Positions 1,777 to 42,887 of a stretch of 64,000 nucleotides of DNA are shown here, one piece after another. Source of the stretch: Rhynchopus sp. YZ270_cl-10 (lineage: Eukaryota); the NCBI GenBank assembly GCA_964035575.1, contig OZ037833.1:1240001-1304000 (forward strand). Reading direction: 5' to 3'. The notes under the pieces are model-generated. The model was not told the DNA's origin, searched no databases, and was given only the letters and a program-made list of their open reading frames with translations. A program made the translations under genes and the position numbers. Position 1 is the stretch's first letter. Every line of letters starts with the position of its first letter.

Positions 1777-2641
<865 letters not shown>

Positions 2642-2650
2642 TGAGAGAAG

Positions 2651-5600
2651 ATGGCGATGCGGCAGGTAGTGCTGCTGTCTGTGGCTGTGGCAGGCCACGC
2701 AGCATGCACGGACTATGGGAACGACGCGACGGCGTGCGGTGCTGACGCGGCGTGTCTGTGGAACCCTGTGTGGTATCCTGATCTGTGCACGGAGGATCCG
2801 TGCAGGGCACAGGTGGGTTCGTCGGACTGTGGGACGACGTCTGTGGAGATGCCGGTGGCGACGTGCCAGGCGCCAGCTGGGGACCCAGACTTCTGCAAGG
2901 TGGAGGTGTGCCAGTACGACTTGGCGCTGTCCCCACGGTGCCACGTGAAGAACTGCCTGTTCTTCTCGCAGGGGACGTGTGGAGGGAGCTGCAAGTGGGA
3001 GACGACAACGGACGTGTCGAACAAGCGCCCGTCGGAGCAGATGGTCTACTGTGTGGAGGACCACTGTGTGGGACAGGGGTCGCAGACGGCGTGCGAGGGG
3101 CAGAACGGGTGTGCGTGGAAAAGCGGGTCCTGTGGGATGACGGACTGTGCGAACCACGCTGACGAGAAGGACTGCGACCACGACCTGAGCTGCCACTACG
3201 ACAACGCGGCAGGGTTCTGCAAGACGACAGCGTGTGCACCGACAACAAACTCGGTTGCCTGTACGTCGGACAACGCGTGCATGTGGAACGACGTTGACAA
3301 GGTTTGTGTGCCGAAGACGTGCGACAAGCACAACCTGCCGACGGCGGACAGGTGTGCGTGTAGCGACGACCCGGACTGCAAGTGGCACATCGGAACCTCG
3401 GGGAGCTACTGTGTGGACCCTCTGTACGACGCATGCCCGGACCTGGATATCGCCTTTGTGCTGGACGGGTCTGGTTCGATGTCGCGTTCCTTCGGAAACC
3501 ACAACCACGGGTTCTACGGTCTGCTTGAGATCATGCGTGACTGGATGATGACTGTGCCGCTGACGGGAGACGACCACACGATGGGTGCAAACATCGACTC
3601 GAAGGGGAAGGGGTTCCGTATCACCTTCATCCAGTTCTCGAAGGCAGACGCAAGACCCGATGAGGACCACCCAACGAACTGTGCCATTGGTGCCTGCACG
3701 GCGGGACACCTGTCCGGACGCAGAGACGAGCTGAACGGAGACATCGACTGGCACGAGGACAACTACCAGTCGCAGTGGACGTACATGCACGAGGCCCTGC
3801 AGGACGTGGCGGACAACACGTTCACCGCGTCGCAGAGCCCGTCGTGGAGAGACCACGTGGTGATCATCATTGCTGACGGAGGTATCACAGACAACGACGG
3901 TGACGCGTGCTGCCCGTGGGCGTGTGGAGACAGACGTTGCATTGACAGGAACTGGCGGTCGACGTACCCCGCAGCACTGGTGAAGGCGCAGGAGGACCTG
4001 CGTTCTGAGAACGTGCAGGTGTTCGGTGTTGTGATGCGCCGGTTCTCGCAGCACACCTTCCAGGACGACAACGCAGAGGCGAAGCTGACACCGCTTGTGA
4101 CGGAGCCCACGAGCGAGCACTTCATGAACCTGATGCTTGACGAGATCCAGGACGAGATGCTGCTGAAGCTGTGCGACCCGAACAGCGTGTTTGGAAAGAC
4201 TCTCTCGAAGCCTGCTGTGACAAGCGCATGTCTGGCGAAGGCGCAGGCGGACTGCGAGTCGACGTCGTACTGCGTGTACGACGTGGCCCTGGGGTCGTGC
4301 ACGGAGTCTGTGTGCTTCCCTCTGTGCGATGAGCAGAACTGCATTGCGAACGACGCGTGCCAGTGGACTGCTGCTGACGGACGGTGTGACCCGAAGCCGC
4401 CAGGCTGCACGGCCCTGTCGCAGACGGAGTGCAAGAACGACCCGACCTGTCTGTGGGACACTGTGTGGAACAAGGGGGACAACTGCGTGGACAACCCGTG
4501 TATCAAGGTTGACGGGTCGACGGCGTGCAACGGTCACGTGGAGCCGGTGCAGACGTGCACAGCAGACCCGACGAACCCCGACAAGTGCGACCTGGAGACG
4601 TGCGCATACGATGCGGCGACGAACAAGTGCGAGGTGAAGAAGTGTCTTGAGGACGAGGACGGACGCTGCACGACGAACACCGACTGTGAGTGGGTGAAGC
4701 CTGCTGGGTCACCGGCAACAACGACACCGTCGACGCTGGTTGGCTACTGTGACGAGAAGATCTGCACGACGACGGATCAGGCCAAGTGTGACGCAGACCC
4801 GCTGTGCAAGTGGGACACTGACAAGTGTGTGACGTCGGAGTGTGCAAAGAACAGGAACGAGAAGGACTGCGACCAGAACCCGAAGTGCCACTGGGACCTG
4901 ACACTGGACCCACAGGGGTGCAAGGAGGAGCCGTGCCAGCTGCTCACAGACACTGCGACGTGCACCGGGTCCCCCGACAACTGCATGTGGACGGACACGG
5001 ACACGTGTGTGCCGAAGAACTGCGACCACTACACGACGAAGTGCGACTGTGAAAAGGATACCGACTGTGCCTGGCACCACGGGCCTGGTGGGTCGTACTG
5101 CAGCGTGCCGCGTTACAGCACCTGCCCGGACCTGGACATTGCCTTTGTGCTGGACGGGTCTGGTTCGATGTCGCGTTCCTTCGGAAACCACGCACACGGG
5201 TTCTACGGTCTGCTTGAGATCATGCGTGACTGGATCAAGGACGTGCCGCTGACGGGAGACGACCACACGATGGGTGCAAACATTGTCTCGAAGGACGCTG
5301 GGTTCCGCATCACCTTCATCCAGTTCTCGAAGGCAGACGCAACACCCGCAGAGGACCACCCAACGAACTGTGCCATTGGTGCCTGCACGGCGGGACACCT
5401 GTCCGGACGCAGAGACGAGCTGAACGGAGACATCACCTGGCACGAGGACAACTACCAGTCGCAGTGGACATACCTGCACGCAGCCCTGCAGGACGTGGCG
5501 GACAACACGTTCACCGCGTCGCAGAGCCCGTCGTGGAGAGACCACGTGGTGATCATCATTGCTGACGGAGGTATCACAGACAACGACGGTGACGCGTGCT

Positions 5601-8600
5601 GCCCGTGGGCGTGTGGAGACAGACGTTGCATTGACACCCAGCACAGAGACGAGTACAAGGGGATGCTTGTGACGGCGCAGCAGGACCTGCGTGACGAGGA
5701 CGTGCAGGTGTTCGGTGTTGTGATGCGCCGGTTCTCGCAGCACACCTTCCAGGACGACAACGCAGAGGCGAAGCTGACACCGCTTGTGACGGAGCCCACG
5801 AGCGAGCACTTCATGAACCTGATGCTTGACGAGATCCAGGACGAGATGCTGCTGAAGCTGTGCGACCCCGACAGCGTGTTTGGAAAGGTGCTTGTGTCGA
5901 AGGAGCCTGAATGCGTTGGGAACCTTGCGGAGGACGAGTGCACGGCTGACAAGGCCTGTGTGTGGGACACCACTGTGTGCAAGAACTCTGAGTGCTACCC
6001 ACACTGCGACGAGCAGACGTGTCTGACGAACCCGGCGTGTGCGTGGAACAACGGCCAGTGCGAGGAGGACCCCGGGTGTGTGAAGCACACTGACTCGACG
6101 GCCTGCAAGAACGACCCGAAGTGTCTGTGGGACGCTGTGTGGAAGAAGGGGGACAACTGCGTGGACAACCCGTGTGTCGACGTGGCAAAGGACGACTGTG
6201 CTGCAGTGGGTGCGACTGTGGACCCGTGCACACCGCCGACTGGCGACCCGGATTTCTGCAAGCTGGATGTGTGCCACGTTACGACAGGTGACGTCTGCGA
6301 GGTGAAGAAGTGTCTTGAGGACGAGGACGGACGCTGCACGACGAACACCGACTGTGAGTGGGTGCCGGCGAACCCGCTTCCGACGAACCCACCGACTTCG
6401 ACGAAGGTTGGATACTGTGACGAGAAGCTGTGCACGACGACGGACCAGGCCAAGTGTGACGCAGACCCGCTGTGCAAGTGGGACACTGACAAGTGTGTGG
6501 AGACGCCCTGTGCGAAGCACAAGAACGAGAAGGACTGCGACCAGGACGGGACATGTGGCTGGGTTGCGACGCAGGACCCGCAGGTGTGCGTGGAGCACGA
6601 GTGCGCGGTGCACGACAACACGATGCAGTGCGAGGCGGACGACAACTGCATGTGGGCGAACGTGTTCGGTAAGGACCAGTGTGTGCCGAAGACGTGCGAG
6701 AAGCACGACTTCAAGTGTGACTGCGAGAAGGACCCAGACTGCAAGTGGCACCACGGACAGGGAAGTGCGCAATGTGTTGCGACTGCGTACGACACGTGCC
6801 CGGACCTGGACATTGCCTTTGTGCTGGACGGGTCTGGTTCGATGTCGCGTTCCTTCGGGTCGCACGCACACGGGTTCTACGGGATGCTTGAGATCCTGCG
6901 TGACTGGGTCAAGGACGTGCCGCTGACGGGGGACGACCACACGATGGGTGCAATGATCGACTCGAAGGGGAAGGGGTTCCGTGTGACCTTCATCCAGTTC
7001 TCGATGGCAGACGCAACACCCGCAGATGACCACCCGACAGGCTGTGCGGTTGGTGCCTGCACGGACGGACACCTGTCCGGACGCAGAGACGAGCTGAACG
7101 GAGACATCACCTGGCACGAGGACAACTACCAGTCGCGCTGGACATACCTGCACGCAGCCCTGCAGGACGTGGCGGACAACACGTTCACCGCGTCGCAGAG
7201 CCCGTCGTGGAGAGAGCACGCAGTGATCATCATTGCTGACGGAGGGCTGACCGACTACGACGGTGACGCGTGCTGCCAGACACGCTGTGGGGACAGACGC
7301 TGCGTGGACAGAGGCTTCAAGTCGACGTACCCGGCGATGCTGGACAAGGCGCAGGGAGACCTGCGTTCTGAGGACGTCATGGTGCTTGGAGTGGTGATCC
7401 GCCGATTCTCGCAGCACACCTTCCAGGACGACAACGCAGAGGCGAAGCTGTCGCCGCTTGTGACTGCGCCGACGAGCGACCACTTCATGAACGTGATGTT
7501 GGAGGAGCTGAAGGAGACGGTGCTGATGAAGCTGTGCGACGACACATCGAAGTTTGGGCAGGCTCTGGGACGGGCGACCGGCTGCCCGCAGTTCCTGAAC
7601 GAGCAGGACTGCAAGCTTGACAAGGCGTGTACGTGGGGGGCGACGGCGGTGTGTGAGGACTCTGAGTGTTACGCAAACTGCGAGGAGACTGACTGCACAA
7701 AGAACCCGAAGTGCCAGTTCGACCCCACGGGCAAGATCTGTACGGAGAAGGAGACCTGCGCTGACAAGGACGTGGCAGACTGCAAGGACGACAAGAACTG
7801 CTTGTGGGACGTTGTGTGGGGGAAGGACACCTGTGTCGACAACCCGTGTGTGGACCCGACAGACGAGGACAAGTGCCACGACGTCACCGCGACTGTGCCG
7901 AACCCGTGCACACCGCCTGCAGGCAACCCCGACTACTGCGACCTGGACGTGTGTCTGTTTGACAAGACCGGGGACCTGTGCGAAGTGCAGAAGTGTCTGC
8001 ATGACGACCAGGTCAGGTGTGAGAAGGAGGACGACTGTGAGTGGAACCCGCCATCTACCGTGCCGCTTCCGACCGGCCCGCCGTCGACACTGATTTCCTG
8101 GTGCAAGCCGAAGGAGTGTGTGCACACGACCCAGGACCTGTGTCTCGCAGACGACGTGTGTGAGTGGAACAACGGTGTGTGCATCGAGGATGAGTGTGTG
8201 AAGCTTCCCGACGAGAAGGAGTGCGACGCGAACCCGAAGTGCCACATGGACACGTCGACGGTGCCAGAGAAGTGCAAGAAGACGGAGTGTGCGAAGTGGG
8301 ACACACAGATGCCGTGTGACGCCGATGCGAAGTGCATGTTCAACGCCGCCAACGTGTGTGTGCCGAAGACATGTGAGAAGCACGGAGCACGGTGCGACTG
8401 CCAGGAGGACCCCGACTGTGCCTGGCACCACGCCGGTGCGCAGTCTGCGTGCACGTCGCCACACTTTGACGCGTGCCCGGACATGGACATTGCCTTCCTC
8501 ATTGACGGGTCTGGTTCGATGCAGCGCAGGTTTGGTGCACACGCACACGGCTTCTACGGGATGATTGAGATGATGCGTGACTGGGTCAAGACTGTGCCGC

Positions 8601-11600
8601 TGACGGGCACCGACCACACTGTGGGCGCAACCATCCCGCAGAACACACCCGGAATGCGTGTGACCTTCATCCAGTTCTCGAAGGCAGACGCACGCCCGGA
8701 CGAGGACCACCCGTCAGGCTGCGCCATCGGTGCCTGCACGGACGGTCTGCTCTCCGGTATGCGCGAGGAGTTGTTTGGAGACCTGGACTGGCACGAGGCA
8801 AACTACCAGTCGCAGTGGACGTACCTGCACGACGCACTGAACGACGTGGCAGACCACACCTTCCTTGCGTCGCAGAGCCCGGCGTACAGAACCCACGTTG
8901 TTGTGATCATTGCGGACGGAGGACTGACGGACTACGACGGTGACGCGTGCTCGAACGGGTGCGGGAAGTGGTACGGGAAGGACAGGAACTGGAAGTCTCG
9001 TTACCAGGACTCGCTGCTGGAGGGCCAGCAGAAGCTGCGTGACGAGGATGTTACTGTGTTCGGTGTGGTTGTGCGTCGCTACGCTGCACACACGTTTGCG
9101 GACGAGAACGCAGAGGTGAAGCTGAAGCCTCTGATCAGTGACCCACGTGACGAGCACTTCATGAACGTGGAGATGGACAACCTGAAGATTGATGTGCTGG
9201 ACCAGCTGTGCGAGAAGTCGAGCACGTTTGGGAAGATCATTGCGAAGACGCTTGCGACGTGCGCAGACCTTGTGGGTCAGGCGGCGTGCGAGGGTGACGA
9301 CGGCTGTGTGTGGGCGGACCCCACATGCAGCAAGTCGGTGTGCTACGACCTGTGCACGGAGGAGAAGTGCGACACGAACCCGCTCTGCACGTGGACCGGA
9401 CCAAACGCCCCGGATGAGTGCACGCTGATCCCGCTGACACCGGTGCCGCCGACGCCGGCACCAGCAACGCTTGCGCCACCGACACCTGTGCCGGAGACAG
9501 CAGCACCGCCAACACAGCCGCCAGCAACGTCTGCGCCGCCAACACCTGCACCGCCAACAGACGTGCCCGAGACACCGGCACCACCGACAATTGCACCGAC
9601 CGCTGTGCCGACACCTGCGCCGCCAGTGGACGAGTGTGAGGATGCGTCGACGAAGAAGGTGTGCGAGGATGCGGGACAGACGTGTGTGGACCCGAACCAG
9701 CAGAACCCAGATGACTGGAAGTGTGTGTGCCCGCCACCGAGCACGGCGTCGCTTGTGGGGGCGGCTGCGAAGGACTGCATGTTTGACGAGTGCAGCCTGA
9801 ACAGTATGACATGCCAGACTGTGGGACAGACGTGTGTGGACCCGGAGAAGGAGAAGCCGGACTCGTGGAAGTGCGAGTGTGTGCCGCCGCAGACGCTTGT
9901 GGGGGCACCGGTGAACGGGAAGCCTGCTATCTGCAAGGACCCGCCGGGCGACTGTGAGACGTTTGGAGACATCTGCCACGTTGCGGGGCAGTCGTGCACG
10001 ACAGGGACGGCGCTCGACAAGAAGGTTGTGTGCGAGTGCATTCCGCCAGCAACCGGAACACCCGGACAGCACGTGCCTGCAGTGTGCGAGCTTGACGAGT
10101 GCAAGGCTGTGTGCCCGACGTGTGCACAGACTGACTCATCGCCGACGAACAAGTGCGAGGACGCGGGACAGGACTGCGAGGACCTGAACCTGGGACACCT
10201 GAAACTTGGGGACTGGCAGTGCAAGTGCAGGACGCCGTACACGGGGTCGAAGGTGACGGCACCTGCAGTGTGTGAGCTGGACGAGTGCAAGGCTGTGTGC
10301 CCGACGTGTGCGAGCACGGCACAGGGGACGCAGAACCTCTGCGAGGAGAAGGGGCAGACGTGTGTGGAGAAGAGCCTGACGACGGTGAGCGACTGGGAGT
10401 GCCACTGCGTGGACCCGAAGGTGGGGACGGCACTGACGGCTGTTGCGGACTGCGAGGAGGACGAGTGCAGGACGAGAGAGCAGATCTGTGTTGGGGCCGG
10501 ACAGTCGTGTGTGGATGTGGACCACAAGGCTGCGGCGTCGTGGGAGTGTGTGTGCCCGCCGCCGTCGAACTCGACACAGGTTGCTGGTGTGGCCGTGTGC
10601 GAGGTGGACGAGTGCACGCTGGCCGACATCAAGAAGGTGTGCGAAGACAGCCACCAGGTCTGTGTGGACACGGACATCACGTCGCTCGGAAACTGGGAGT
10701 GCCACTGCGTGGCGCCTGCACACGGAACTGCGCCGCAGCACGCGGTGGCGTCGTGCTCGCTGGACGAGTGTGCGGTGAAGTGCCCGACGTGTGCCGACAA
10801 GGACAACGGGAACGGGAACGTGTGCACGGCTGCAGGTCAGCTCTGCGAGGACCCGCAGCCGACACACACGAACCTGAACGACTGGCTCTGCAAGTGCCCG
10901 CCGCCAAGCACAAAGACTGCGGTGACGACGACTGTGGCAGATTGTCGGGACGGGTTTGACGAGTGTGTGGAGCGGTCGGACGCTGTGCAGTGCAAGCACA
11001 CCCCGCGGTACTCGCTGGACGGGTGTCTGTGCCAGTGTGGATGGACGAGCGACGAGTTCAAGCAGACGGAGCCATGCACGGACGGATGCTGCAACCCGAT
11101 GCACGAGAAGTCGTCGTGGTGCCTTGTGGACACGGCGGACGACTACAACAAGAACAAGCCGCACTGCCTTGCGGAGTCGAAGCAGTTCTGTCTGTCTGCG
11201 GGCCAGGTCCCGGCTGACGGGGGCAGGCCGCTGCGCGACCCGATTCCCGGAATCCCGAACGGGCAGACGAACGTGTGCACGGATGTGGGGCAGAAGTGTG
11301 TGGACCCGGATGAGAAGACGGAGAAGGACTGGTGGTGTGAGTGCGTGCTCCCGAAGACCGGGCCGAAGGGTCTGCAGAGCCCTGCGGTGTGTGAGGAGGA
11401 CGAGTGCGTGACGCACGGGGCTGTGTGCACGAACGCTGGACAGAAGTGTGTTGACGCGGACCACGGTGCGTTGATGAACTGGCAGTGCGAGTGTGTTGTG
11501 GGCCCCCCGAAGACGGGTGCGCAGGGCGTTGCGGTGTGCGAGATTGACGAGTGCATTGAGATCTGCCCGACGTGTGCGACCGACAACGGAACTAATGTGT

Positions 11601-14600
11601 GCGCAGAGGCTGGGCAGGACTGTGCAGACCCGAACACTGCCGGGACGAGCCTGAACGACTGGACGTGCAAATGCCGCGCGCCGAGCCAGGGCACCGCTGT
11701 CGGCGGCCCTGTGGCGAAGTGTCTGCTGGACGAGTGCGCGGAGCCGCCCCCAGGTGTGCCCTGCCCAACATGCGCGAAGGGGGCGTGTGGGGACCAGACG
11801 TGCGAGGACCCGGACCAGTCGCCGACGTCGACGAACGACTGGCGTTGTGTGTGTCTGCCGCCGTCGAACACGGTGGCGATTGGGAACCGTGCGGAGTGCG
11901 AGATTGACGAGTGCGACGGGAAGGTGTGCGCGCTGGGGCAGCACTGCTACGACCCTGACCTGACTGCGCCGGACACGTGGCAGTGTGAATGCCTCGCGCC
12001 TGCGACCGGGACCCAGCTCATGGGTAACGCGACGTGTGAGGAGGACGAGTGCCAGGAGCACGAGGAGGTGTGCATGCGTGCCGGGCAGTCGTGCACGGAC
12101 CCGAACAAGCAGGTGCACGACAACTGGCTGTGCGAGTGCATTGCACCGGACCTGGGTTTGGCGGGGGCGCAGAAGCCCGCAGAGTGCAAGCCGTCGGAGG
12201 AGTGCAAGGACAACACCCTGTGCACTGGTGCCGGACAGCACTGTGTGGACCCGAACGCAGCGGTGCTGGACGACTGGGAGTGCCAGTGCATTGCGCCGCT
12301 GAAGGGAACGCCTGTGACGAAGGGGATTGCCGACTGCAAGATTGACGAGTGCCTGGAGGTGTGCCCGACGTGCGCAAAGCAGGCGGGGGCGACAACGCAG
12401 GTGTGCGAGCTGCACGGGCAGACGTGTGAGGAGCCGGACATGAAGACGCTGAACGACTGGAGCTGTGTCTGTGTGGCGCCTGCGACGGGCACACCCGGAG
12501 TGACGGCACCCGCAAACTGCCTTTTGGACGAGTGCGTGGCGGACTGCGACCACTGTGCAGTGAAGACGTGCTCGGACAAGGGGCAGCTGTGCGAGGACCC
12601 GAACACGGACCCGAAGTACAAGCGCGACTGGCTGTGCAAGTGCCCTCCGCCGTCGACGAACACGATGACCAACGGGGCGGTGGCGACATGCATGTACGAC
12701 GAGTGCAGCGCACCGGGGAACAAGGACGTGTGCGGGACGGACCAGCTGTGTGTGGACACGAACCAGGAGGAGGAGGGAACCTGGGAGTGCTCGTGCCCGG
12801 CACCGTACAGTGGGTCGGCAGCACAGGCGGCTGTTGGAAAGTGCTCGCTGAACGAGTGCTCGACGAAGTGCAGCGGGTGTGCGGACAAGGACAACGGCCA
12901 GGGGAACGTGTGCGCACAGCAGGACCAGACCTGCGTGGACCCGGACATCCACAACGACGGGGACTGGTACTGCCAGTGCAAGGTGGGGACTGGGCTGGCT
13001 GTCGGGAAGCCCGTTGTGCTGTGCGTGCTTGACGAGTGTGCTGTGGCATGCCCGACGTGTGCGGACACCGGAGGTGGGAACCTGTGCACGAAGGAGGGAC
13101 AGACGTGCAAGGACGTGAACACTGCGGCAGACTCGAAGGGGGACTGGGAGTGCCGCTGCCCGCCGCCGTTTGAGGAGAAGTTTGTGAAGGCTGGGCTGGC
13201 GGTGTGCAGTGTCGACGAGTGTGCGGACATGCTGGGCGGGAAGGTGAACGGGGCTGTGTGTGTGGACAACGGGCAGCTGTGCCACGACTCGCACCTCGAC
13301 ACGCTGAACGACTTTGACTGCGTGTGCCCGCCACCGCGCCACGGAACGAAGACAGGAGCACCTGCAGAGTGTGTGAAGGACGAGTGCCTGCTGCACGAGG
13401 ATGTGTGCAAGGGGGCAAACCAGACCTGTCTGGACATCGACACCCAGGTGGACAACAACTGGGAGTGCCTGTGCGCGCCGCCGTCGTCGAGCACGCAGCT
13501 GATGGGGGCCGCTGTGTGCGAGGTGGACGAGTGTGTGGAGAACAGACGCATCTGCGAGGGTGCGTCGCCGCCGCAGGAGTGTGTCGACGTGGACCGCACC
13601 CGTCTGAACGACTGGGAGTGCAGGTGCCAGACGCCGGCGTCGGGAACTGCTGTGGCTGCTGCTGCCTCGTGTGTGCTGGACGAGTGCGTGGCGACGTGCG
13701 CAACGTGCGAGAAGGACCTGTGCACAGGGGCAGGACAGACCTGTGTGGACCCGAACACAGCGTTTGGAAGCCAGAACGACTGGGAGTGTGTGTGCCCGGC
13801 GCCGTCGTCTGTGACTGCGAAGGTGTCTGTGGCGGAGTGCCCTGTCGACGAGTGCGTGGGACACGGCTACGTGTGCCAGGCCGCACACCAGTCGTGTGTG
13901 GACCCGAACCACGGGGCGGCAAGCCTTGGAGACTGGGAGTGCCACTGCCTGACACCTGCGACAGGGGCGGCAATTGCAGGAGTGGCGGCATGCACTGTGG
14001 ACGAGTGCACGAACCACGGCCACGTGTGCACGGGACACGGACAGACGTGTGTCGACCCCGACAAGAGTGCGGACGTGCTGCACGACTGGGAGTGCCACTG
14101 CGAGCCCCCGGCCACACAGACGGCAGTGGCGGCAGCAGCTGAGTGCGTGCACGAGGGAGAGTGCAAGGACCCTGTGAAGGCTGGTGTCTGCGAGAGCCGT
14201 GGGCAGATCTGCGAGGACCCGGACATGACGATCCTGGACGACTGGCGCTGCCTGTGCACGCCGCCGAGCCACGGTCTGCTGAAGGTTGCAGGGCCGGCGT
14301 TCTGCATCCTCGACGAGTGTGTGGACTCGTGTGCGACGTGCGCGAAGGACGTGTGCAAGGCAGCGGGACAGACGTGCGTGGATGAGAACCAGGACTCTGT
14401 GCTTGGGCTGAACACATGGGAGTGCAGGTGCATTGCACCCTCGTCTGGGTCGAAGGTCGCAGGTGCGGCGGTGTGTGTGGAGGACGAGTGCTCGTCGCAC
14501 GCGTCGACCTGCACGGGTGCGGGACAGGACTGCGTCGACCCGTCGACAACAACCAAGGGAGACTGGCGTTGCGAGTGCAAGCAGCCGTCGACTGGGACAG

Positions 14601-17600
14601 CAACTGCGGGGGCGGCCAAGTGCTCGACGAACGAGTGCGACTTCCACGAGAAGACGTGTTCCGACGTGGGACAGGTGTGCTACGACCCGGACCTGTCGGC
14701 GCAGTCGCTTGGAGACTGGACCTGCACATGTGTGGCACCGTACGTGGGGTCGCAGGTGGCAGCGGCGGCAAAGTGCCAGGTGGACGAGTGTGAGCTGTAC
14801 GGACACGTGTGCACGGCTGCGGGACAGACCTGTGTTGACGAGGAGAAGGACATGGCGGGCTTCTGGAAGTGTGTCTGCCCGCCACCGAACGAGAAGTTCA
14901 AGCGTAACATGGGTGTGGCAGACTGCGTTGTCGACGAGTGCACGACATGGACGAACACAAGCACCCCGTCTGCGATGCCGTCGAACGACCGGAACGCAGT
15001 GAACCTGTGCGAGCAGGCTGGGCAGGTGTGCGAGGACCCGAACCACAACGCGTCGTCTGCTGGGGACTGGACGTGCACGTGCCCGTCTCCGGGGAACAGA
15101 ACTGCGCGTGCACACGTGGCGACGTGCGATGTGGACGAGTGTGCGGACCCTGCGAAGGAGTCTGTGTGTGAGGCCAAGGGGCAGCGCTGCGTGGACCCGA
15201 ACTGGGAGCCTGGTCACGAAGGCGACTGGACGTGTGTGTGCGTGCCGCCGTCGGTTGGGACGGGGATGCAGGCTGTGGCCGTGTGCCTGGTGGACGAGTG
15301 CAAGACCGAAGGTGCTGTGTGCCAGTCAAGCGGTCAGCTGTGTGTTGACACCAACCATGCGGAGGCTGGGACGTGGGCGTGCGAGTGTGTGGCACACGCG
15401 GGCGTGAACGCGTCGCAGCTGGGAGGACTGGCAGACTGCAACCCGCCGTCGAGCGAGTGCAGAATTGACGCAATCCGCGAGGTGTGCACGTCGTCGAACC
15501 AGGGCTGCTACGACCCGGACCTGAAGGCACACAACGACTGGGTGTGCGAGTGCGTGCCGCCTGCCACAGGACCGCAGAAGCAGGGTGAGGCGACAGTGTG
15601 TGTGCTCGACGAGTGTGAGGAGGAGTGCCCGACATGCGGGAAGTCGGTGTGCGCGGCCGCGGGTCAGACGTGCACAGACGCGAACACGGACGCAGCCTCG
15701 CTGAGCGACTGGACTTGCACATGCCCGACCCCCTCGACAGGATCGAAGAAGGGAGGCGTGGCGGTGTGCCAGCTGGACGAGTGTGCTGCGGTGTGCGACG
15801 GCTGCCCGTCGGACATCTGCACTGCGGCAGGTACGCAGTGTGAGGACACGAACAAGGACGCACGTTCGCCCGGAGACTGGGAGTGCGTGTGCCGTGCACC
15901 TGCCCTGGGACGTGTGACACAGGGCGTGCCGGTGTGCCTGATTGACGAGTGCGAGCAGAACGCACACAAGTGCGCGGATGGGCAGACGTGCGCTGACGCG
16001 AACAAGCTTGCGGCGTCCGAGGGAGACTGGACGTGCACGTGCCCGCCGCCGACGTCTGGAATTGCGGTGGCGAGTGCGGCAGTGTGCTTCGAGAACGAGT
16101 GTCTCGTGGACGACAATGTGAAGACGTGCACTGCAGGGGGACAGGTGTGCATTGACCCTAAGCCGCAGCCGACGAACAAGGGTGACTGGGAGTGCCACTG
16201 CGCGCAGGGGAAGACCTTTGCTGTGGCGGCGGCAGCAGTCTGTGTGCTGGACGAGTGTGTGGAGCAGTGCACGTCGTGCGCGGACAGCGGGGGTGGTAAC
16301 GTGTGTGCGAAGGCCGGGCAGCTCTGCACGGACCCGAACACGTCGCCGGAGAGCACACGTGACTGGAAGTGCCAGTGTGCGGCAGGGGAGAAGGCTGCGC
16401 TTGGTGGCCCTGCGACGTGCGAGGTGGACGAGTGCTGGCAGCCAAGCAACTTTGGTGCACACACGTGCCATGACACACCGCGGACGACGGTCGACGGGTG
16501 TGCGTGCCAGTGTGGCTGGCAGGTGCAGGATGCGGCGCAGTACCCCGGGGCACACGGTGCTGGTATTGAGGTGGGCTGTCTGGCTGGGTGCTGCAACCCG
16601 AACGTCGTGGCGTCGGGGGCGTGGTGCCTGCTGGAGCCTGTGCAGACGACGGCCGTGTGCCAGGACCTCGTGACTGCGGGGGAGATGGTGCAGACGTGCG
16701 CGGTGCTGGCGTCGGGAGTGGCACCGGCGAAGCCGGAGAACCTGTGCACGAAGGCGGGCCAGGTGTGCGTCGACCCGGACACGAGTGCGACGAGCTCTGG
16801 TGACTGGCGGTGCGAGTGCGTTTCGCCGGCGAGCGGAGACCCGAGTGTCGGGAAGGCTGGGTCGTGCAAGATCGACGAGTGCGAGAAGAACGGGCAGGTG
16901 TGCTCTGCGGCGGGACAGCTGTGCAAGGACGCGGACAAGGCGACGGAGAACACGTGGGAGTGTGTGTGCCCGTCGCCTGCGACAGGGTCTGCGACCGGGA
17001 AGGTTGCGGCGTGCGTGTACGTGGGTGAGTGCGAGACGGCAAGCATTGCGGAGGTGTGCGAGCAGGTGGGGCAGACGTGCTACGACCCGGACGCAGCTGT
17101 GACTGGGGACTGGGTGTGCAAGTGCGTGGACCCGGCGACGGGTGTGCCTGCTCTCATGACGACGGCGACGTGTGTGCTGGACGAGTGCACGGCGGAGTGC
17201 CCGACGTGTGCGGACAAGGGGTTCGGAAACCTGTGCGATGTGGCTGGACAGCACTGCGTGGAGTCGTCGACGTCGCCGGCAGACGTTGAGGACTGGATGT
17301 GCAAGTGTGTTGGAGACGCCGTTGGGGAGTCTGTGGCATCTGTGGCCGTGTGCACGCTGGACGAGTGCAAGATGAACAACGGACGCCTGGCACAGCTGTG
17401 CGGTGCGGCCGGGCAGACCTGCAACGACCCGAACAAGGCGGTGCTTGGGGGTCTGAACGACTGGGAGTGCGTGTGCCCTCCACCAAGCATCGGGCGTGTG
17501 ACGGGGAAGCTTGCAACGTGTCTGCGTGATGAGTGCCTGGAGACAGACGTGGCTGCGGTGTGCACGTCGGCAGGACAGACGTGCCAGGACCCGAACACGG

Positions 17601-20600
17601 ACGCACGCAGCACCGGAGACTGGACGTGCGCGTGCTCGGCGAAGCCGGGTGAGACACCGAAGGTGGCGAAGGGGAAGGCCGCAAAGTGCGTGCTGCCGCC
17701 GAGCTCGTGGTGCGTGCAGCACGGCGAGACGTGCACGTTCCTGGGACAGGCGTGCGTGCCCGCGGCAAGCATTCTGGAAGACGGCTCGTGCGCATGCATT
17801 GAGCCGCAGACAGGGCCGACGAAGGTGGGGGCGGCAACAGTGTGCATCCTTGACGAGTGCACGGCGGTTTGTGCGACGTGTGCCGACCACGGTGCCGGTA
17901 ACGTGTGCGACAAGGCGGGACAGACGTGCCAGGAGGGAAGCATGAACCCTGTGACCGGGAAGGGAGACTGGCGCTGCAAGTGTGCCGGGTCGGACATGTC
18001 GGCGGTGGCGGCAGTGGCGGTGTGCACCGTGAACGAGTGTGACACAGACGAGAAGGCAAAGGTGTGCGCAGCTGCGGAGCAGACGTGCACAGACAAGAAC
18101 ACGGCCGGAGACTCGCTGAACGACTGGATGTGCGCATGCCACGAGCCCTGGACGGGGAGCAAGATGCTCGGGGCTGCGGACTGCAAGTTTGACGAGTGCC
18201 TGTTCGCCGGAAGCGAGTGCACGGCGCTGGGGCAGACCTGCTTCGACAAGGACACGTCTGCACAGGTGCGTGGTGACTGGGAGTGCCGCTGTGTGGCGCC
18301 TGCAGAGGGCTTCGCTATTGCGAAGGCAGCGACGTGTGTGTACACGGGGGAGTGCGAGAAGCAGGAGATCGCAGAGGTGTGCACGAAGGCAGGACAGACC
18401 TGTGTGGACCCGAACCCGGCTGTGGCGGACGACTGGGAGTGCCGCTGCGTGTCGCCCGAGGCAGGATCACACACCAGGGGGGCAGTGGCGGTGTGCATGC
18501 TGGACGAGTGCCGTGCGACGTGCTCGTCGTGTGCAACGAAGCCAGGGTCGCTGACACACGCATGCGCGTCTGCGGAGCAGGACTGCATGGACCCGGACAC
18601 AGCAGCGACAAGCATTGCGGACTGGAAGTGTTCGTGCCGTGCGCCTGCGTCTGGGGAGATGGTGGGTGCGGCGGCTGTGTGCAGCGTGGACGAGTGCTAC
18701 AATGCAGAGAACCGTGCGGCGTGCTCGCGTGTGAAGGACACAACAGGGGCGGAGGTGCAGCACTGTGTGGACAAGGACTACACAAAGACCGGGGACTGGG
18801 TGTGCGAGTGCATGTACCCGTACCACGGAACCGCGGGACAGCGTGAGGCGGCAGTGTGCGTGGTCGACGAGTGCACGGCGCCGGAGGCGTGGAGCAAGCG
18901 CCCGAACGGAAACGCGGTGTGTGGGGCGAAGGGACAGACCTGCCTCGACCCTCAGCAGGGTGTGGCATCGGAGTTTGAGAACTGGGTGTGCCAGTGTGCG
19001 GACGGTACTGGGGAGCCGAACAGGGGTGCGCCGTCGACGGATTGCAAGCAGGACACACTGTGTGCGCAGTTCGGGTCTGCATGCGGGCCGCTCGAGATGT
19101 GCGTGGAGAAGGAGGACGTGTGGTCGTGCAGGTGCATTCCGCCCTTCGTGGGTGAGGCTGCTGGGAAGGCGGCATCCTGTGTGCTGGACGAGTGCACGGC
19201 GGAGTGCACGACGTGTGCGCAGCAGGGTGCAGTGCACATGTGCACGCAGGCCGGGCAGAAGTGCGTGGACCACGACAAGTCACCGGACAGCCGTTCCGAC
19301 TGGTCGTGCGTGTGCGAGGTCGGGAAGGGAGAGGCTGCTCTCCACAAGGCGGAGTGCATGGTTGACGAGTGCACGCTGAACGGAGTGACGTGCGAGGGTA
19401 AGGGCCAGGAGTGCGTTGACCCGGACATGCATGCCGAGACAAGCGGAGACTGGGTGTGCCAGTGCATTGCGCCTGCGGCTGGTAAGGCCGTGGCCGGACC
19501 TGCTACATGCCTGCTTGACGAGTGCAACCTGTACGGCGGGAAGTGCACAGTGGTGGGACAGGTGTGCATTGACCAGAACACTGCTGCGGCGAGTCTGAAC
19601 GACTGGACGTGCAACTGCCCGGCACCTTCGTCGGGATACATGTACGCTGGACCTGCATCGTGCACGTACACGGGGGCGTGCCAGGACGCTGCGAACTTGG
19701 ACGTGTGCGCGGATGCGGGTCAGCGCTGCTTCCCAGGGAACTCGTCGGCAGACGACTTCAGGTGTGGGTGCATGCCGCCGTACCGTGGCACTGCTGGGGT
19801 GCGTGCCCCTGCACAGTGCATGATCGACGAGTGCGAGGACATCTGTGCAACGTGCGCGCGCACAAACGAGAAGGCTGTCAACGTTTGCGCGGGTGCGGGC
19901 CAGCGTTGCGAGGACCCGAACCTGTCTGTGCAGAGCCTGGGTGACTGGGTGTGCATGTGCCAGGCCCCGTCGACAACAGCGGCCGTTGCGCATGCTGTTG
20001 ACAGCTGCCTTGTGGATGAGTGCCTTGCCATCACCATGACAGGTGCACGCAAGTGCGACAACTTCAAGCGCTACACGAACGACGGCTGCGAGTGTGCGTG
20101 CGGCTGGAAGGTCAGCGGCATCAACGGCGGCGGTCCCGGCCTTGACGAGAACTGCAACACAGGATGCTGCAACCCGGACAAGGCAAAGGAGGGAGACTGG
20201 TGCATTGTTGCCGACAGTGCCTTCAACAAGAAGAGCGGTGTCTGCAGTGCGCTTATCAGCAAGCAGCAGACGTGTGCGAACGAGCGTGCACCTGCCCCTG
20301 CAGGCGCACCTGTGAGCGAGTTTGTCGACATCTGTGCTGCCTCTGGCCAGCGTTGCTACGACCCTAACCACAACCCAAGTGTGCAGGGTGACTGGGAGTG
20401 CCACTGCACAACCTCTGAGGACTACCACATTCTTACCCCGGCAAAGTGCAGTATGTGTTTTTCCCTCCCTCTCTTCTTCTTCTTCTTCTGGTGGTTTTGT
20501 TGTTTTCCTTTTTCCTTTTTATGATGAGTTGTTGGAAAAGTAACTGTGTTTCTGAGTTAACCCACACGCACACGCCACACTTGGCGCATACCCCGCACTT

Positions 20601-23015
20601 GGGGCAGGGATTACCGAAAAACTGATATACAGAAATATACAGAAACACCACACAACACCCACAAACCTTTTCACCACCACACAGGCGTTGACGAGTGCGA
20701 TCAGGTCACAGTGTGCTCGCAGGTTGGGCAGAAGTGCTTTGACAAGAACACCGATGCGGAGTCGAAGGACGACTGGGAATGCCAGTGCCTGTCAGGAAGC
20801 GGGTCGAAGGACATGGCTGCTGCGGAGTGTGGTATGACCTCCCTCTGCTCTCCTCCGCCCTTACCCCACCTCTTACCCACCCCTTGCCCCTACCCACCCA
20901 CCCCGCCGCCTTGACACAACCCATCGTGCAAATGCTGCAAACGTGCACTCCCCTTCCTTTGGTTGTGATGCCATTTGTTTGTGTGTATTTCCTGTTGTGA
21001 TTGTCTGAAGGCGCACAACTATGCTGTGCAATGACGATTGTGATTTAGCTGACTGCTAAACACAGGGCCTGGGCTCATCTTGCTAACCCATCTCCAAAAC
21101 ATTAACACTTATATACCTGCACGTGTGGCGCACGATGACTTGCCACTGAGCATGCTTCCCATTAACTTCCTTCTTAACTGCCTTCTTTGCACACACGCAC
21201 ACCCATATCCACACAGTGTTCGACGGACACGACGAGTGCCAGATTGAGGCAAACCAGAAGACCTGCCTGAACGCTGGACAGTACTGCTACGACGAGGACC
21301 CGGAGCTGGCGGGCGACTGGGTGTGCCACTGCACAGACCCCTACGTGCAGGAGGCACCGGGTATCACAGAGGCTGCGACCTGTGTGATTGACGAGTGCCT
21401 GGCGACATGCCCGACGTGCGCAAGGAAGGGAGACGGACACGGCTACGCCTGTGAGGGACAGCAGTGTGTTGACCCGTCAGGATCGGAGCTTGGGGACTGG
21501 CGCTGCGACTGCCTTGCCCCTGCCCTTGGCGCTGGTCTGCAGGAGCGTGCGGTGTGCGTGCAGGACGAGTGTCTCGACACACAGAACCTGCAGAAGTGCA
21601 CAGACAAGAACCAGGAGTGCGTGGACCTGCACCCAAGCGACACAAGCCTGAACGACTGGGAGTGCCACTGCGTGCGCCCGGCCCTGGGTTCGGCCATTGG
21701 CCACGCAGCAGTGTGCAAGATCAACGAGTGTCTGACGGATGAAAACATGCAGCTGTGCCACGAGAAGGGACAGATGTGCTTCGACCCTGACACAACAGCA
21801 GAGTCGACAGACGACTGGATCTGCAGATGCCCGGCCCCTGCTATTGGAAGTGCGACGATGAAGCCTGCGGAGTGCGTCTTTGTTGGGGAGTGCGACAGGC
21901 CGGAGATTGCAGCTGTGTGCATTGCAGTGGAGCAGACGTGCGTCGACACGGACGTGGCACAGGACGGGACCTGGGTGTGCAGCTGTGTGGCACCGAAGAC
22001 AGGGACGAACGGGCTCATGGGCCCTGCGGAGTGTGGGATTGACGAGTGCCAGGCTGAGTGCAAGACGTGCGAGATGGACGTGTGCAAGGAGGCCGGACAG
22101 GACTGCTACGACCCGGACGTCACGATTGAGGGTGACTGGATGTGCGCATGCAAGGGCGGCACCGGGAACAAGACCACGACGGCACCGGCAGTGTGCACAG
22201 GTGTTGTGTGCGCGACGCTGGGTGCTGAGGAGTGCACAGCTGCACCCGAGTGTGTGTACGAGAGCTACTACGGCCTTTGCGACTACGTCAGGGGGGCACC
22301 GGAATGGAACACATCTGCCCCGGCACGTCCGATTGGCGAGGGTGAGGACGACGACGACTGCACCTTCTGGGAGTGCTGGTGGTGGCTGCTTCTGCTCCTC
22401 CTCCTGTGCTGCTGCCTCCTGCTTGCCTTCCTCCTGTTCCGCTGCAGACAGAAGCAGCAGCAGAACGAGATGGACGACGACAAGTGGAACAAGCAGTTCC
22501 AGGCTGAGGTTGGCGACGATGAGAACGACTACGGCATGGTATGGCGCCTCCCATCAGGGACAGGTTTACGTTCATTGTCACGTTATGATGTTTTGTCACC
22601 ACCTCGACGTCACGTCACCTCCACAACTTGGCACGACAAAGGATAGTTGACATCCCCCTGGCTTGTGTTCCTTTACTTTGCCCTGGTTGGCACAGTTCAT
22701 AGGCTAGCTCTGTACATGAATGAACCAGGGCTGTGTTTCTGCTATGTGGTTCCACCACTGGACCGTTTACTCATCGGCTGGTTTGTTATCCAGGGTAGTG
22801 AGCAATACTGATTTTGTACCCCCTCCCCCCCCCCCCCCCTTTTTTTTGTCTTTGTTGAGTTCGATAGTTGCATTTATCTTCCACCACCACACCCACCACC
22901 ACAGTCGGAACGCTCGCCCCAGGGCAGTGCAGCAGGAGGCACTGAGGAGCCGCTTCTTGAGATGTCTGCCAAGGACAGCAGCCCGGGATCCCGTGCTGAC
23001 GACGACGACATCTAA
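2651..23015 (+). CDS. Giant (~6,459 aa) type I membrane adhesin-like protein: signal peptide, 4 VWA domains with Cys-rich spacers, Pro/Thr stalk, dozens of EGF-like repeats, 3 kringle/FnII-like inserts, TM helix, acidic tail. Exons 2651-20450, 20685-20831, 21217-22538, 22905-23015
   Basis: The 5957-codon ORF and the downstream ORFs join in frame through GTATG...CACAG introns (phases 1, 1, 0; 19,380 nt in total). Four MIDAS motifs DIAF(V/L)(L/I)DGSGSM. Repeated DECx..CxxxGQxCxDP...DWxCxC units. N-terminal hydrophobic signal. TM segment [21 protein letters not shown]. Confidence 0.9.
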
Positions 23016-23958
23016 GTGGACCATCTACACTTGTGCATGATCAAGAGAGATGCAATTTGAAGCATGTGACGGAGGAGCCTGTCACGTGCTGTTACTCCCT
23101 TACCCCATCTCCCCGTTTGGTTTGTTTTTCGTTTTGTGTTTCTTGTGTGTGAGACGCTGTTCCGCCCCACCCCCCAATCCCGCACCCGTTGTTTGCTTCC
23201 TGTGTTTTTTTTTTGTTTTTTTTTTGGACAACACTTCGCTCGAGCAGATCGTTCCCATCGAATTGTGTTGTCTTACCACCCCCCCCTCATACTTTCCCGC
23301 CTTTCTTAGGCAGGTTTGTCCACAACTTTTGGTTTCCTTCGCACAGATAAGAAGAGTGCGTTGCAGGAAAACACAAAAAAGAAAAAAAACTGTTTTATTC
23401 GATCCTTACACGGTGACTGTTACTCCCTCCCCCCTTCCCTGTCCCTGTATTTGCGCTCTGTCCATGTGCCATCAAAATACACCAATAATGAGTCCAGAGT
23501 GGCCCCGAGAATTTAAAAAAAAAAAACCCAGCGGGGGCTGCCGAAGCAGGTCAGGCACCTATGACGGGTTTCTGCTCTGTGTCCCTTAAGGCTTTTTTTT
23601 TTAATATTATGGCCACCTCCTGTCACTGTTCCCCCCTTCCTCCTTCCTCCTTCCCCCCTTCTCCTCGCACACACTTTCACCTCCTCCCGCAGTGTGCATA
23701 CAATTGTGTATTTGTGCAGGATGTGGTTTTTTTTTGTGTGGGCAGAAGAACCTTTACCTGAGGTGTTTAGGCTGTTAGTGTGAAGGATTGTCGTGGTCTT
23801 CGGGTGACTATGCACAGCAAGAGGATTCGACGTGGATCAACCCTTTGTGTGTATTTTTGTTGCCAGCCGGAGCCAAGCAATCCTGTGTCTCAGCCCCTGC
23901 CTATTTCCCCTCCCCCAGCTCCCATCCCCCAAATTAGCCTTAATCGCAGGGAACTGCT

Positions 23959-23992
<34 letters not shown>

Positions 23993-24728
23993 GAGGGAAA
24001 ACCACCCCACGTCCACTGTTCAGGGTGCATAGTTTGTGCGGTTCCCCCACCTTTTTTTGCAGCCTCCCTGTGCTTGAAGGAAAAAATTATATTGTTTATG
24101 ACCTGTAACACGGCATATTCACTAGTCTTATCATGCTCGCTTTTTGCCTTGTGTGGATTTATTGTCTTTCTTTTGATTTTTTGTGTGTTGGAGTGTTTTT
24201 TTTTTGACAATAAAATATGTAGGGGGCAAAAATAGAGCACAGATCAAAGCAAAAAATAGGGGGAGATGGAGAGAAGAGGGATAAGTGTACCAAAAAAAAA
24301 AACAAAAAAAAAACAAAAATAAAAATAAAAAAAAACTTCCCTTTTTCTTCTGCGAACCGCGTTGGTAAAAAGGCCGAAAAAAAAGGTGCACTTTTCCCCC
24401 TCTTTTTTCTTGTCTCTCTCTTTTCTCAACACCATTTTTTGGAAAATTGAATTATAATTATCCCCCCCCCCGCACCGAGAATTCCAATTTCAATTTTTAT
24501 TCGCAAACAATTTCCCCTTTTTTTCCCCCCCTTTAGTCAAAACGCCTTTTCAATAAGGCAAAAAAAAAAAAAAGTAAAAAGCAAAATTTTTTAAAAGTCA
24601 TCGTCGTTGTGGAGTGGCACATCCGTTATTTTTATATTTTTTTACTGAAGCGTCTGTTTAAAAAAAAACCCCCACAAACAGAGGACAATATTGTATGTGT
24701 GTAGCATTTCTTAAGAAAGACCTCCATC

Positions 24729-24957
24729 CACGACGGTGAAGTAACGGGTGTTACAAGTGGAGTTACAAGTGAGTTACATGTAACTTTTGTTACATGTAAC
24801 TCACTTGTAACCCACTTGTAACCCACCAGTTACAACCTGATTTTGCCTGTAATTCATGTATCCCACTTGTAACTCACTTGTAACTCACTTGTAACGGTTT
24901 TTCACTTGTAACGTTACTAGTAACTTCACTTGTAATGTACTATACTTCACCGTCGTG
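24729..24957. mobile_element. 229-bp MITE, CACTA/EnSpm(CMC)-like
   Basis: 15-bp TIRs CACGACGGTGAAGTA, 2-bp TSD TC, internal GTTACAAGTG/CACTTGTAAC subterminal repeats. A second copy lies inverted at 42659-42887. Confidence 0.85.
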
Positions 24958-34535: not shown

Positions 34536-35287
34536 AAAAACAGCGTGCAATGGAGGATGCAATATTTGAACTTTTATGGCGAAAAATTGCTGTACAGAAC
34601 ATTCACAGTGGATGTGAGGATGTCTGGAGGTGATGGTATTTGAGGATACCCTCAAATGTTGATACAAACAAAGTAACGTTTTTCTTTTTGAGTTGAAAAA
34701 GGAAAAAAAAGCCACCTTTAATGACTCAGTCTCTTTGATGTCTCTGTGCTTCACATTGTTATCTACACGGTGGCCAGTTACCCCCTGGTGGCAAGCCGTC
34801 CTCTCTCCTCTCCCCTCCCTCTACACGACGGTGGAGCAAATGGTTTTGCTTGCGGTTTCACCGTTGGTTGGAACGGTGAAACCAAAGAACCACAACAAAA
34901 CCACACCTCATGTCATTTCCACTTCACCGTCACGTAATAAGCCCTCCCCCCCTCACTCTACTGCCATACAACACACCACACCACCCCCCAAAGGCAGGGA
35001 CACCATTTACCCCCCCACCCACAACCACCTTACACAAATGGTTTAGCGCAACCTCCCCCTCCCTTACCACCACAACAAACTTCTCTTTCGGAAAGCTGCA
35101 AACGTGGTTATTTTCCTCACCTCCCCCCTACCCCCCCTCCTTCACAAACCCACTTTGTAGACGCCTGCGTCCTAGACGTTTGCACCTTTTTTCTGCCTTC
35201 TTCTCAACCCTCAAAACGACAACTTTTTTTTTTCCTCCATTTTTCCCCCATTTTTTTCTCTCTCTTCTAAACTAAAACAACAAAAAA

Positions 35288-42658: not shown

Positions 42659-42887
42659 CACGACGGTGATGTACAGTACATTACAAGTGAAGTTACTTGT
42701 AACGTTACAAGTGAAAAACCGTTACAAGTGAGTTACAAGTGAGTTACAAGTGGGATACATGAATTACAGGCAAAATCAGGTTGTAACTGGTGGGTTACAA
42801 GTGGGTTACAAGTGAGTTACATGTAACAAAAGTTACATGTAACTCACTTGTAACTCCACTTGTAACACCCGTTACATCACCGTCGTG
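42659..42887. mobile_element. 229-bp CACTA/EnSpm-like MITE, inverted copy of 24729-24957
   Basis: TIRs CACGACGGTGATGTA, 2-bp TSD TA, near-identical reverse complement of copy 1. Confidence 0.85.

Follow-up and report, generated by a model that had tools for sequence, protein, structure and literature searches.

What does the giant gene at positions 2651 to 23,015 of a 64,000-nucleotide (nt) stretch of Rhynchopus sp. YZ270_cl-10 encode (GenBank assembly GCA_964035575.1, contig OZ037833.1, forward strand, 1,240,001 to 1,304,000; the whole stretch is hereafter the window), and what might its product do at the cell surface? A preliminary description had read it as a convergent euglenozoan adhesin of ~6,460 amino acids (aa), laid out like the apicomplexan proteins TRAP and CTRP. 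Joining four exons on the + strand gave an open frame for 6,459 aa (~687 kDa, isoelectric point 4.4), a small correction of that length. We found that the protein belongs to a large, apparently undescribed multi-copy family, so far seen only in diplonemids, and we infer that a role as surface adhesin or coat component is its best reading. The earlier proposal thus stands as to euglenozoan origin (here narrowed to diplonemids) and keeps its surface role as the best reading, but loses the TRAP-type gliding mechanism. Giant type I surface proteins with VWA and EGF domains are already known; what is new here is the combination of domains, the pairing of a conserved stalk with exchanged heads, and the existence of two tail types.

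The gene begins in a single open frame (2645-20521, 5,959 codons) that contains exon 1 (2651..20450), with the signal peptide, the entire head and the bulk of the stalk, up to a donor at 20451. Intron 1 (20451..20684, 234 nt) and intron 2 (20832..21216, 385 nt) flank exon 2 (20685..20831), which corresponds to one EGF-like unit. Exon 3 (21217..22538) holds the final EGF-like units, one 4-Cys repeat, an acidic patch, the transmembrane (TM) helix and the first half of the tail, and is followed by intron 3 (22539..22904, 366 nt) and exon 4 (22905..23015), which runs through the TAA stop (23013-23015) and is homologous to the tails of intron-free relatives. All three introns start with GTATG and end with CACAG (3/3). 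An identical CACAG, 16 nt 5' of the first ATG (2630..2634), is a candidate spliced-leader acceptor, and the second ATG, at 2657, may be the real start since paralogue P0005 begins there. Downstream of the stop, 23016..24200 is probably a long 3' untranslated region, covered by contigs 22964-23187, 23232-23950 and 24004-24200 from X4, a run without intron cover; 24200 is not a mapped end. GC at third codon positions is 80% over the whole gene and 65-78% in the small exons, and long antisense open frames over the gene were dismissed as shadows of that 80%.

For the splicing test, contigs from four of six listed public runs (X1-X4) were aligned to 19500-24200, and each run was judged as RNA or DNA from intron cover alone. 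Joints skipping an intron at GT..AG were present for intron 1 in X3 and X4, for intron 2 in X2, X3 and X4, and for intron 3 in X1 and X4. Depth in X4 was zero in bins wholly within introns 2 and 3, yet the unique 3' flank past the stop was covered, so this run behaves as RNA; X2 and X3 do cover introns, and their joints therefore probably come from paralogues without those introns. Two such paralogues, P0005 and P0006 (94% and 92% identical over the stalk), are continuous across junctions 1 and 2 exactly as modelled. In addition, the open frames of relatives break off at the same three places as the introns of the window, and the tail motifs of exon 4 recur in intron-free relatives. On this evidence the splice model is secure, and the true C-terminus does lie behind three spliced introns, as first proposed. 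Splicing of this exact copy is best demonstrated for intron 3, which one X1 contig crosses without any differing letter. Close paralogues differ in their intron content: introns 1 and 2 are missing from P0005 and P0006, relatives at a greater distance keep the same positions, and the contigs reveal paralogues with a much shorter intron 3, which suggests recent intron loss in some copies.

The protein starts with a signal peptide (aa 1-18, 2651..2704), called with the help of paralogue N-termini; this feature and the type I topology, both claimed earlier, agree with sequence and hydropathy, from which they were called rather than by a dedicated predictor. The head (2705..9424) consists of four ~560-aa units, in each of which a VWA domain comes after a block of 4-Cys repeats. 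The VWA domains are domain 1 (3443..4174), domain 2 (5132..5863), domain 3 (6806..7537) and domain 4 (8483..9211). Domains 1 and 2 share 93% nt identity across 771 nt, and the fourth is the most divergent (64% to the first). The four distal VWA domains with an intact metal-ion-dependent adhesion site (MIDAS) that had been reported are well borne out: Pfam VWA (PF00092) matches above cut-off in four stretches (E 2.8e-28), and DxSxS...T...D is retained in 4/4 domains, with T and D aligning with residues of the integrin alphaX I domain that we take to be MIDAS residues. Their predicted fold, of the Rossmann type, matches I domains (Z 8-10). The 4-Cys repeat, of ~29 aa, reads C-x6/8-C-x4/5-C-x-W-x3/9-C; 32 copies lie in the head and one more near the membrane (33 in total), and the head repeat region is predicted mostly at a pLDDT (predicted local distance difference test score) of 60-84. 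A single-sequence PDB search with one head block returned chance-type matches only, and a phage tail family offered for the repeats by an atlas search (0.77) is implausible. A Pro/Thr/Ala-rich segment follows the head (9434..9628); the Pro/Thr stalk of the preliminary description is thus present, but as a hinge of only ~65 aa (aa 2262-2326).

The stalk proper (9629..22196) crosses introns 1 and 2 and comprises 68 EGF-like units in a conserved order, 45 with six Cys and 23 with eight, plus three other modules; Cys makes up 10.5% of the ectodomain. The EGF call, in line with the Cys-rich repeats first reported, is based on Cys spacing and a predicted two-stranded hairpin fold. The six-Cys spacing with C4-x-C5 was seen in 66-68 units, whereas Pfam EGF matches all remained under the curated cut-off (EGF_CA 24.2 bits vs 27), and units within the protein are mutually only 42% alike. 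For a modelled 313-aa stalk segment (mean pLDDT 82), the listed structural matches were dominated by EGF, FnII and kringle proteins, those to EGF proteins being weak but consistent (Z 2.4-3.1). The consensus for calcium-binding EGF units is [DN]x[DN][EQ] ... C-x-[DN]-x4-[YF]; here, [DN][EQ]C occurs in 54/68 units and C-x-D...aromatic-x-C-x-C in 60/68, and the first acidic ligand is D/N in 1/68 (E in 9/68).

The three other modules are kringle/FnII-like. Module 1 (10991..11203), inserted within an EGF-like unit, was called from its model and structural matches, and modules 2 (16466..16699) and 3 (20051..20278) from alignment to it. The first 21 rows of matches to module 1 were all FnII- or kringle-bearing chains (Z up to 4.3; root-mean-square deviation 3.4 over 53 aa; best Foldseek E 0.017), and the FnII-like resemblance includes mannose-receptor-family and IGF2R chains. 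A prothrombin kringle motif aligned weakly to a kringle-like module (E 1.4), an atlas search gave a weak FnII lead (0.78), and Pfam returned no kringle or FnII match for the modules. The first layout had missed these modules, together with the 33 4-Cys repeats and the multi-copy nature of the family. In its tandem, ordered EGF-like units the protein resembles the arrays of Notch, fibrillin, EMR2/CD97 and megalin/LRP, and in combining EGF with kringle/FnII folds it resembles factor XII and urokinase; matrilins are animal proteins that pair VWA with EGF. It differs from the animal arrays in its diplonemid EGF variant, with a hairpin loop longer than that of canonical calcium-binding EGF units, an eight-Cys subtype, an incomplete calcium consensus and sub-cut-off Pfam scores, and in having no Notch, LDL-A or propeller domains.

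The TM helix (22377..22439, aa 6370-6390), supported by hydropathy and conservation, contains the Cys cluster noted before (CCC). The cytoplasmic tail (22440..23012) has 69 aa, is split by intron 3, and carries 26% D/E, a KWNxxF motif with the single Trp (W6406, codon at 22485, 54 residues from the end), an EEPLL stretch (LL at 22953-22958) and an acidic-hydrophobic end, DDDDI. The acidic tail thus holds as described, except that EEPLL does not fit the canonical dileucine form [DE]xxxL[LI]. Tails were surveyed in 22 hand-picked proteins (window included) out of 172, chosen for an acidic-patch/Cys-cluster TM signature and an intact end; P0005, P0006, P0055, P0092 and P0115, which run into intron 3, and proteins with other tails were left out. 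W6406 and F6410 are each conserved in 18/22, the two positions of the LL pair in 21/22 and 20/22, and an end of the form [DE]x[ILV] in 17/22. Rhomboid proteases prefer AG/GG-type helix breakers in the outer TM half; by a crude motif test such breakers occur in 1/21 parsed relatives and not in the TM helix of the window.

Other anchors and tails occur among the relatives. A sister clade (P0025, P0027, P0030, P0031, P0033-P0035, P0122 and P0155) is type I with the same EGF units and ends in (S/T)GWV; these GWV enders make up 9 of the 172 proteins and come from Diplonema, Rhynchopus, Flectonema, Hemistasia and Artemidia. Full-length members have 5,200-6,600 aa, 43-61 EGF units and a different head of ~1,900-3,000 aa, some with Pfam FnII (domain labels of the long sister-clade proteins are precomputed ones). 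Their tails are rich in Pro, Gly and Ser, with 3-8% D/E in the last 60 aa, and so combine a penultimate Trp with no acidity. P0102, which has the same acidic tail, carries its VWA domains in a membrane-proximal position, and the VWA head or EGF units are also found on multi-pass TM anchors (P0004, P0184, P0077, P0051, P0054, P0057 and P0137).

In the succession of its six-Cys, eight-Cys and kringle-like units, the stalk agrees with P0011 and with the D. papillatum, Lacrimia and Flectonema relatives, with 0/2,000 shuffles reaching the score in each of the four tests, and the best-matching units are in register for 44/68 (P0011) and 21/68 (D. papillatum). The heads of relatives carry four VWA domains, one VWA domain, LamG (P0008) or six kringle-like modules (P0010), and P0018, P0022 and P0024 have no head at all. 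Among the VWA-less paralogues are complete ones (P0022, a Flectonema transcript). Two quick trees were built. In that of the stalk, the LamG, kringle and one headless form nest within VWA-headed groups (support 99-100), and in that of the VWA domains, the domains cluster mostly by protein and not by position. Identity between P0006 and the window protein is 55-85% over the head and 79-98% over the stalk. Since complete VWA-less paralogues exist, the invariant core, as judged from sequence, is the stalk and tail, not the VWA head.

The stalk search, confined to proteins of 3,263-10,383 aa, found 38 relatives, and a C-terminal 296-aa query against the full library gave 199 representatives (E ≤ 0.001), 150 of them listed. 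Species labels were present on 18 of the 30 relatives looked up, all 18 diplonemid, the other 12 being unlabelled. They name D. papillatum, D. ambulator, Rhynchopus euleeides, Flectonema, Lacrimia, Artemidia and Namystynia; the prefixes Rhum and Hpha in source names presumably denote R. humris and Hemistasia. In two runs that cover introns, depth over the TM region was ~17x that of the single-copy flank, a rough sign of many gene copies in this organism (depth is not copy number), and the rest of the 64-kb window contains no second family fragment. No description of the family was found in a full-text literature search, outside which most subscription papers lie. The main text of the D. papillatum genome paper mentions no Willebrand, EGF, adhesion or Notch (PMC10161547), and the terms hair, EGF, adhesion and Willebrand are all absent from a paper on the diplonemid feeding apparatus (PMC13615690).

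A parallel among Euglenozoa by description is bodonin of Bodo saltans, also a large multi-copy surface family, with a proposed role in attachment to prey and substrate (PMC4728078). In some diplonemid relatives (P0004, P0184 and P0077), multi-pass TM anchors likewise carry the same head or the EGF units; however, bodonins average seven TM helices and have a Ser/Thr/Asn-rich ectodomain (PMC4728078), whereas the window protein is single-pass and Cys-rich, a comparison made from descriptions. A relative of the head was sought in Bodo among proteins of 1,100-3,500 aa, and four were found, none labelled Bodo; this negative is weak because the available rows of a proteome table name the Bodo protein BSAL_88760 as best match of similar-sounding proteins.

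What, then, might such a protein do? The reading that we favour, held with a confidence that falls a little short of even, is an adhesive rod of the hair coat on the cell apex, flagellar pocket and flagella. The protein would be secreted and then disulfide-folded, and its Cys-rich, likely palmitoylated TM helix together with the KWNxxF, LL and acidic-end motifs would direct sorting to, and recycling through, the apical membrane. An EGF-like unit measures 2.5-3 nm, and on that basis the 68 units would place the head ~170-200 nm away from the membrane. There, Mg2+ at each MIDAS could bind acidic groups on prey, substrate or other cells, with four VWA copies providing avidity, and paralogues with other heads or none would form a mixed coat on one shared scaffold. 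The fit to a hair coat thus lies in a multi-copy, membrane-anchored rod of ~170-200 nm with sorting-type tail motifs and exchangeable tips. Such coats have been described: in D. japonicum and D. aggregatum, a glycocalyx together with a coat of hairs covers the apex, the flagella and the flagellar pocket, and D. japonicum uses a flagellum for attachment (PMC5845003). In Lacrimia vacuolata the membrane of the cell body is naked, hairs are dense on the apex, vesicles are hair-coated, and cells glide by making contact with surfaces through the anterior tip (PMC10653844).

Several points weigh against the hair-coat reading. The calcium-EGF consensus is only partly satisfied (D/N two residues before DEC in 1/68), which leaves the stiffness of the putative rod uncertain, and the VWA model is of low confidence (pLDDT 30-55). 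The constant number of 68 units is partly a selection effect of the 3,263-10,383-aa length filter; P0080 of Lacrimia bears the same tail with 25 units. The conserved order can also be explained by plain inheritance of old, diverged repeats without special selection. No localisation was found for the window protein or for any established orthologue. DIPPA_70101, the member of the clade in D. papillatum, is missing from the available rows of Table A of the subcellular proteome, in which two or three TM proteins annotated as VWA or Notch fall in the multivesicular-body cluster and not in the cell-membrane or flagellar clusters (PMC12697944). Finally, no hair length was found in the available literature, so the rod length cannot be matched to hairs.

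The strongest alternative, though an unlikely one, is a giant endocytic capture receptor of megalin/LRP or mannose-receptor type, whose ligands, food polymers or particles, would be bound at the cytopharynx or in the flagellar pocket, and whose tail would take it through rounds of endosomal cycling. It overlaps with the hair-coat reading and differs in making uptake, rather than coat structure, the main job. The LL pair, kept in 20-21 of 22 tails in an acidic setting, would suit such a receptor, as would the FnII-like modules with their likeness to mannose-receptor-family and IGF2R chains. Two proteins predicted to be multivesicular-body residents would count as well if they are relatives: a P. 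papillatum protein with a signal peptide, seven VWA domains and a TM helix (support-vector-machine score 0.78), and a TM 'Notch2' protein (0.67) (PMC12697944). The motif survey of the 22 tails points the other way, with the canonical [DE]xxxL[LI] in 1/22, NPxY in 0/22 and YxxPhi in 2/22, and headless paralogues keep the full stalk.

Next comes the motor-coupled gliding adhesin of TRAP type, in which the VWA domains would hold on to the substrate and the acidic tail would be linked to a motor, so that the adhesin is pulled rearward before being shed; we consider it distinctly improbable. Adhesins of the TRAP family are stored in micronemes and driven by an actomyosin motor. The likeness to TRAP, CTRP and MIC2 is genuine in outline, with a signal peptide, distal MIDAS-bearing VWA domains, a single TM helix and a short acidic tail, whose 26% D/E falls within the 18-30% of TRAP tails (PMC2169348). 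CTRP has six VWA domains, four of them with MIDAS (PMC9019593), and the ectodomain of the window protein agrees with the TRAP family through VWA only (four with MIDAS). Diplonemids do glide, Lacrimia by its haired tip (PMC8061765, PMC5845003, PMC10653844), and in five named genera the sister clade, built with these EGF units, terminates in GWV. In TRAP tails, however, acidity is accompanied by a penultimate or antepenultimate Trp (PMC2169348, PMC9019593), and a Trp in this terminal region is called decisive for the family (PMC9019593). None of the 22 close relatives has a Trp within the last five residues (0/22), that of the window protein lies far from the end, and the GWV clade is non-acidic. 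Thrombospondin type 1 repeats (TSR) were absent, with no Pfam TSP match across exons 1 and 3 and no WxxWxx[CW] (0) or CSx[TS]CG (0) in the full model. The window protein has 68 EGF-like and three kringle/FnII-like units instead and is far longer, its Cys-rich TM helix offers no obvious rhomboid-type site, and its family includes VWA-less paralogues. In VWA fold comparisons TRAP and MIC2 (Z 7.0-8.1) score no higher than integrin, collagen VI or VWF domains, and no sequence search gave a link to apicomplexan proteins. On sequence grounds the window protein is not a member of the TRAP family, since it lacks both the terminal Trp and TSR, and the parallel drawn in the preliminary description fails at the level of mechanism.

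A somewhat slimmer chance falls to a role in a passive coat, protective or variable, or in the mucilage and shed vesicles, directed against predators, viruses or bacteria, with head variation serving evasion. A multi-copy family whose heads diverge faster than its stalks would be in keeping with this, and mucilage and hair-coated vesicles are described in diplonemids (PMC5845003, PMC10653844). So would be the resemblance of the head repeats to the C-terminal 4-Cys region of Trypanosoma brucei VSG, likewise a module of ~29 aa in which four Cys and an aromatic residue are conserved features. With a profile of the 33 repeats, the sole PDB sequence match at E up to 10 was VSG 6z8g (18.6 bits, E 0.014), in which both subdomains align. 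Decoys with the same Cys/Trp skeleton reached the score of this match in 14/2,000 cases (own composition) and 1/2,000 (uniform), and on the profile, genuine repeats from distant diplonemid relatives have a median score of 11-13 bits. None of the other solved VSG C-terminal entries that PMC12226131 names was matched at E up to 10, and 3 of the 33 units matched PSI and one the Pfam VSG C-terminal family (E 0.29). The contexts also differ, with 33 copies in a TM protein against one or two under a glycosylphosphatidylinositol-anchored VSG, and the E-value is weak. The relationship between the two modules is accordingly suggestive, not shown. Against a passive coat, DxSxS is kept in the VWA domains of all listed close relatives, which would argue for active ligand binding, and such a coat would not need a conserved cytoplasmic tail.

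A Notch-like signalling receptor, the meaning of the GenBank label 'Neurogenic locus Notch protein' that some D. papillatum members carry (others being 'hypothetical protein'), shares a long ordered EGF array and a single TM helix with our protein, but is very improbable: the label stems from EGF similarity alone, Pfam scans gave neither LNR nor ankyrin, the tail has only 69 aa, and the canonical O-fucose site is present in 1/66 EGF-like units.

The neighbours of the gene in the window are ordinary + strand genes (RRM, short-chain dehydrogenase, GnT-I, Pex14, SRR1 and PP2C); the GnT-I family glycosyltransferase gene (35276-36862, Pfam E 3.7e-98) lies 12 kb downstream and has no demonstrated link to the surface protein. 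Upstream, a perfect (TGGGAC) x49 microsatellite (2203-2498) ends ~150 nt 5' of the start codon, and a ~250-nt non-coding element occurs twice (824-1072 and 1776-2035; segments 81-93% alike), and a third copy, which is partial, lies at 1662. A GTTACA/TGTAAC-rich repeat of 11-12 nt forms two arrays in opposite orientation (24750-24950 and 42721-42866), which are likely to represent a single dispersed element in two copies. Further tandem arrays have units of 75 nt (56137-56536, within a 1,070-codon frame without a Pfam match) and 63/127 nt (59290-59774).

Diplonemids are among the most abundant marine protists and rely on a haired apex for gliding, attachment and feeding; our literature search found no paper that names proteins of their apical coat or adhesion. 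In its boldest form, which we regard as a slim prospect, the hair-coat reading would make this family the very substance of the coat, with registered ~200-nm EGF rods whose interchangeable ends (VWA, LamG, kringle-like or no tip at all) would hold on to prey and substrate and pass on traction while the apex leads in gliding. The head repeats give a clue to where the VSG C-terminal module came from; among African trypanosomes this module is described as being confined to T. brucei (PMC12226131). More broadly, a receptor toolkit of VWA, EGF and kringle/FnII-like units, usually tied to animals, has been assembled and shuffled in a distant protist line. The family is a concrete candidate for the coat and adhesion of the haired apex, and its clade member DIPPA_70101 belongs to the genetically tractable D. 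papillatum.

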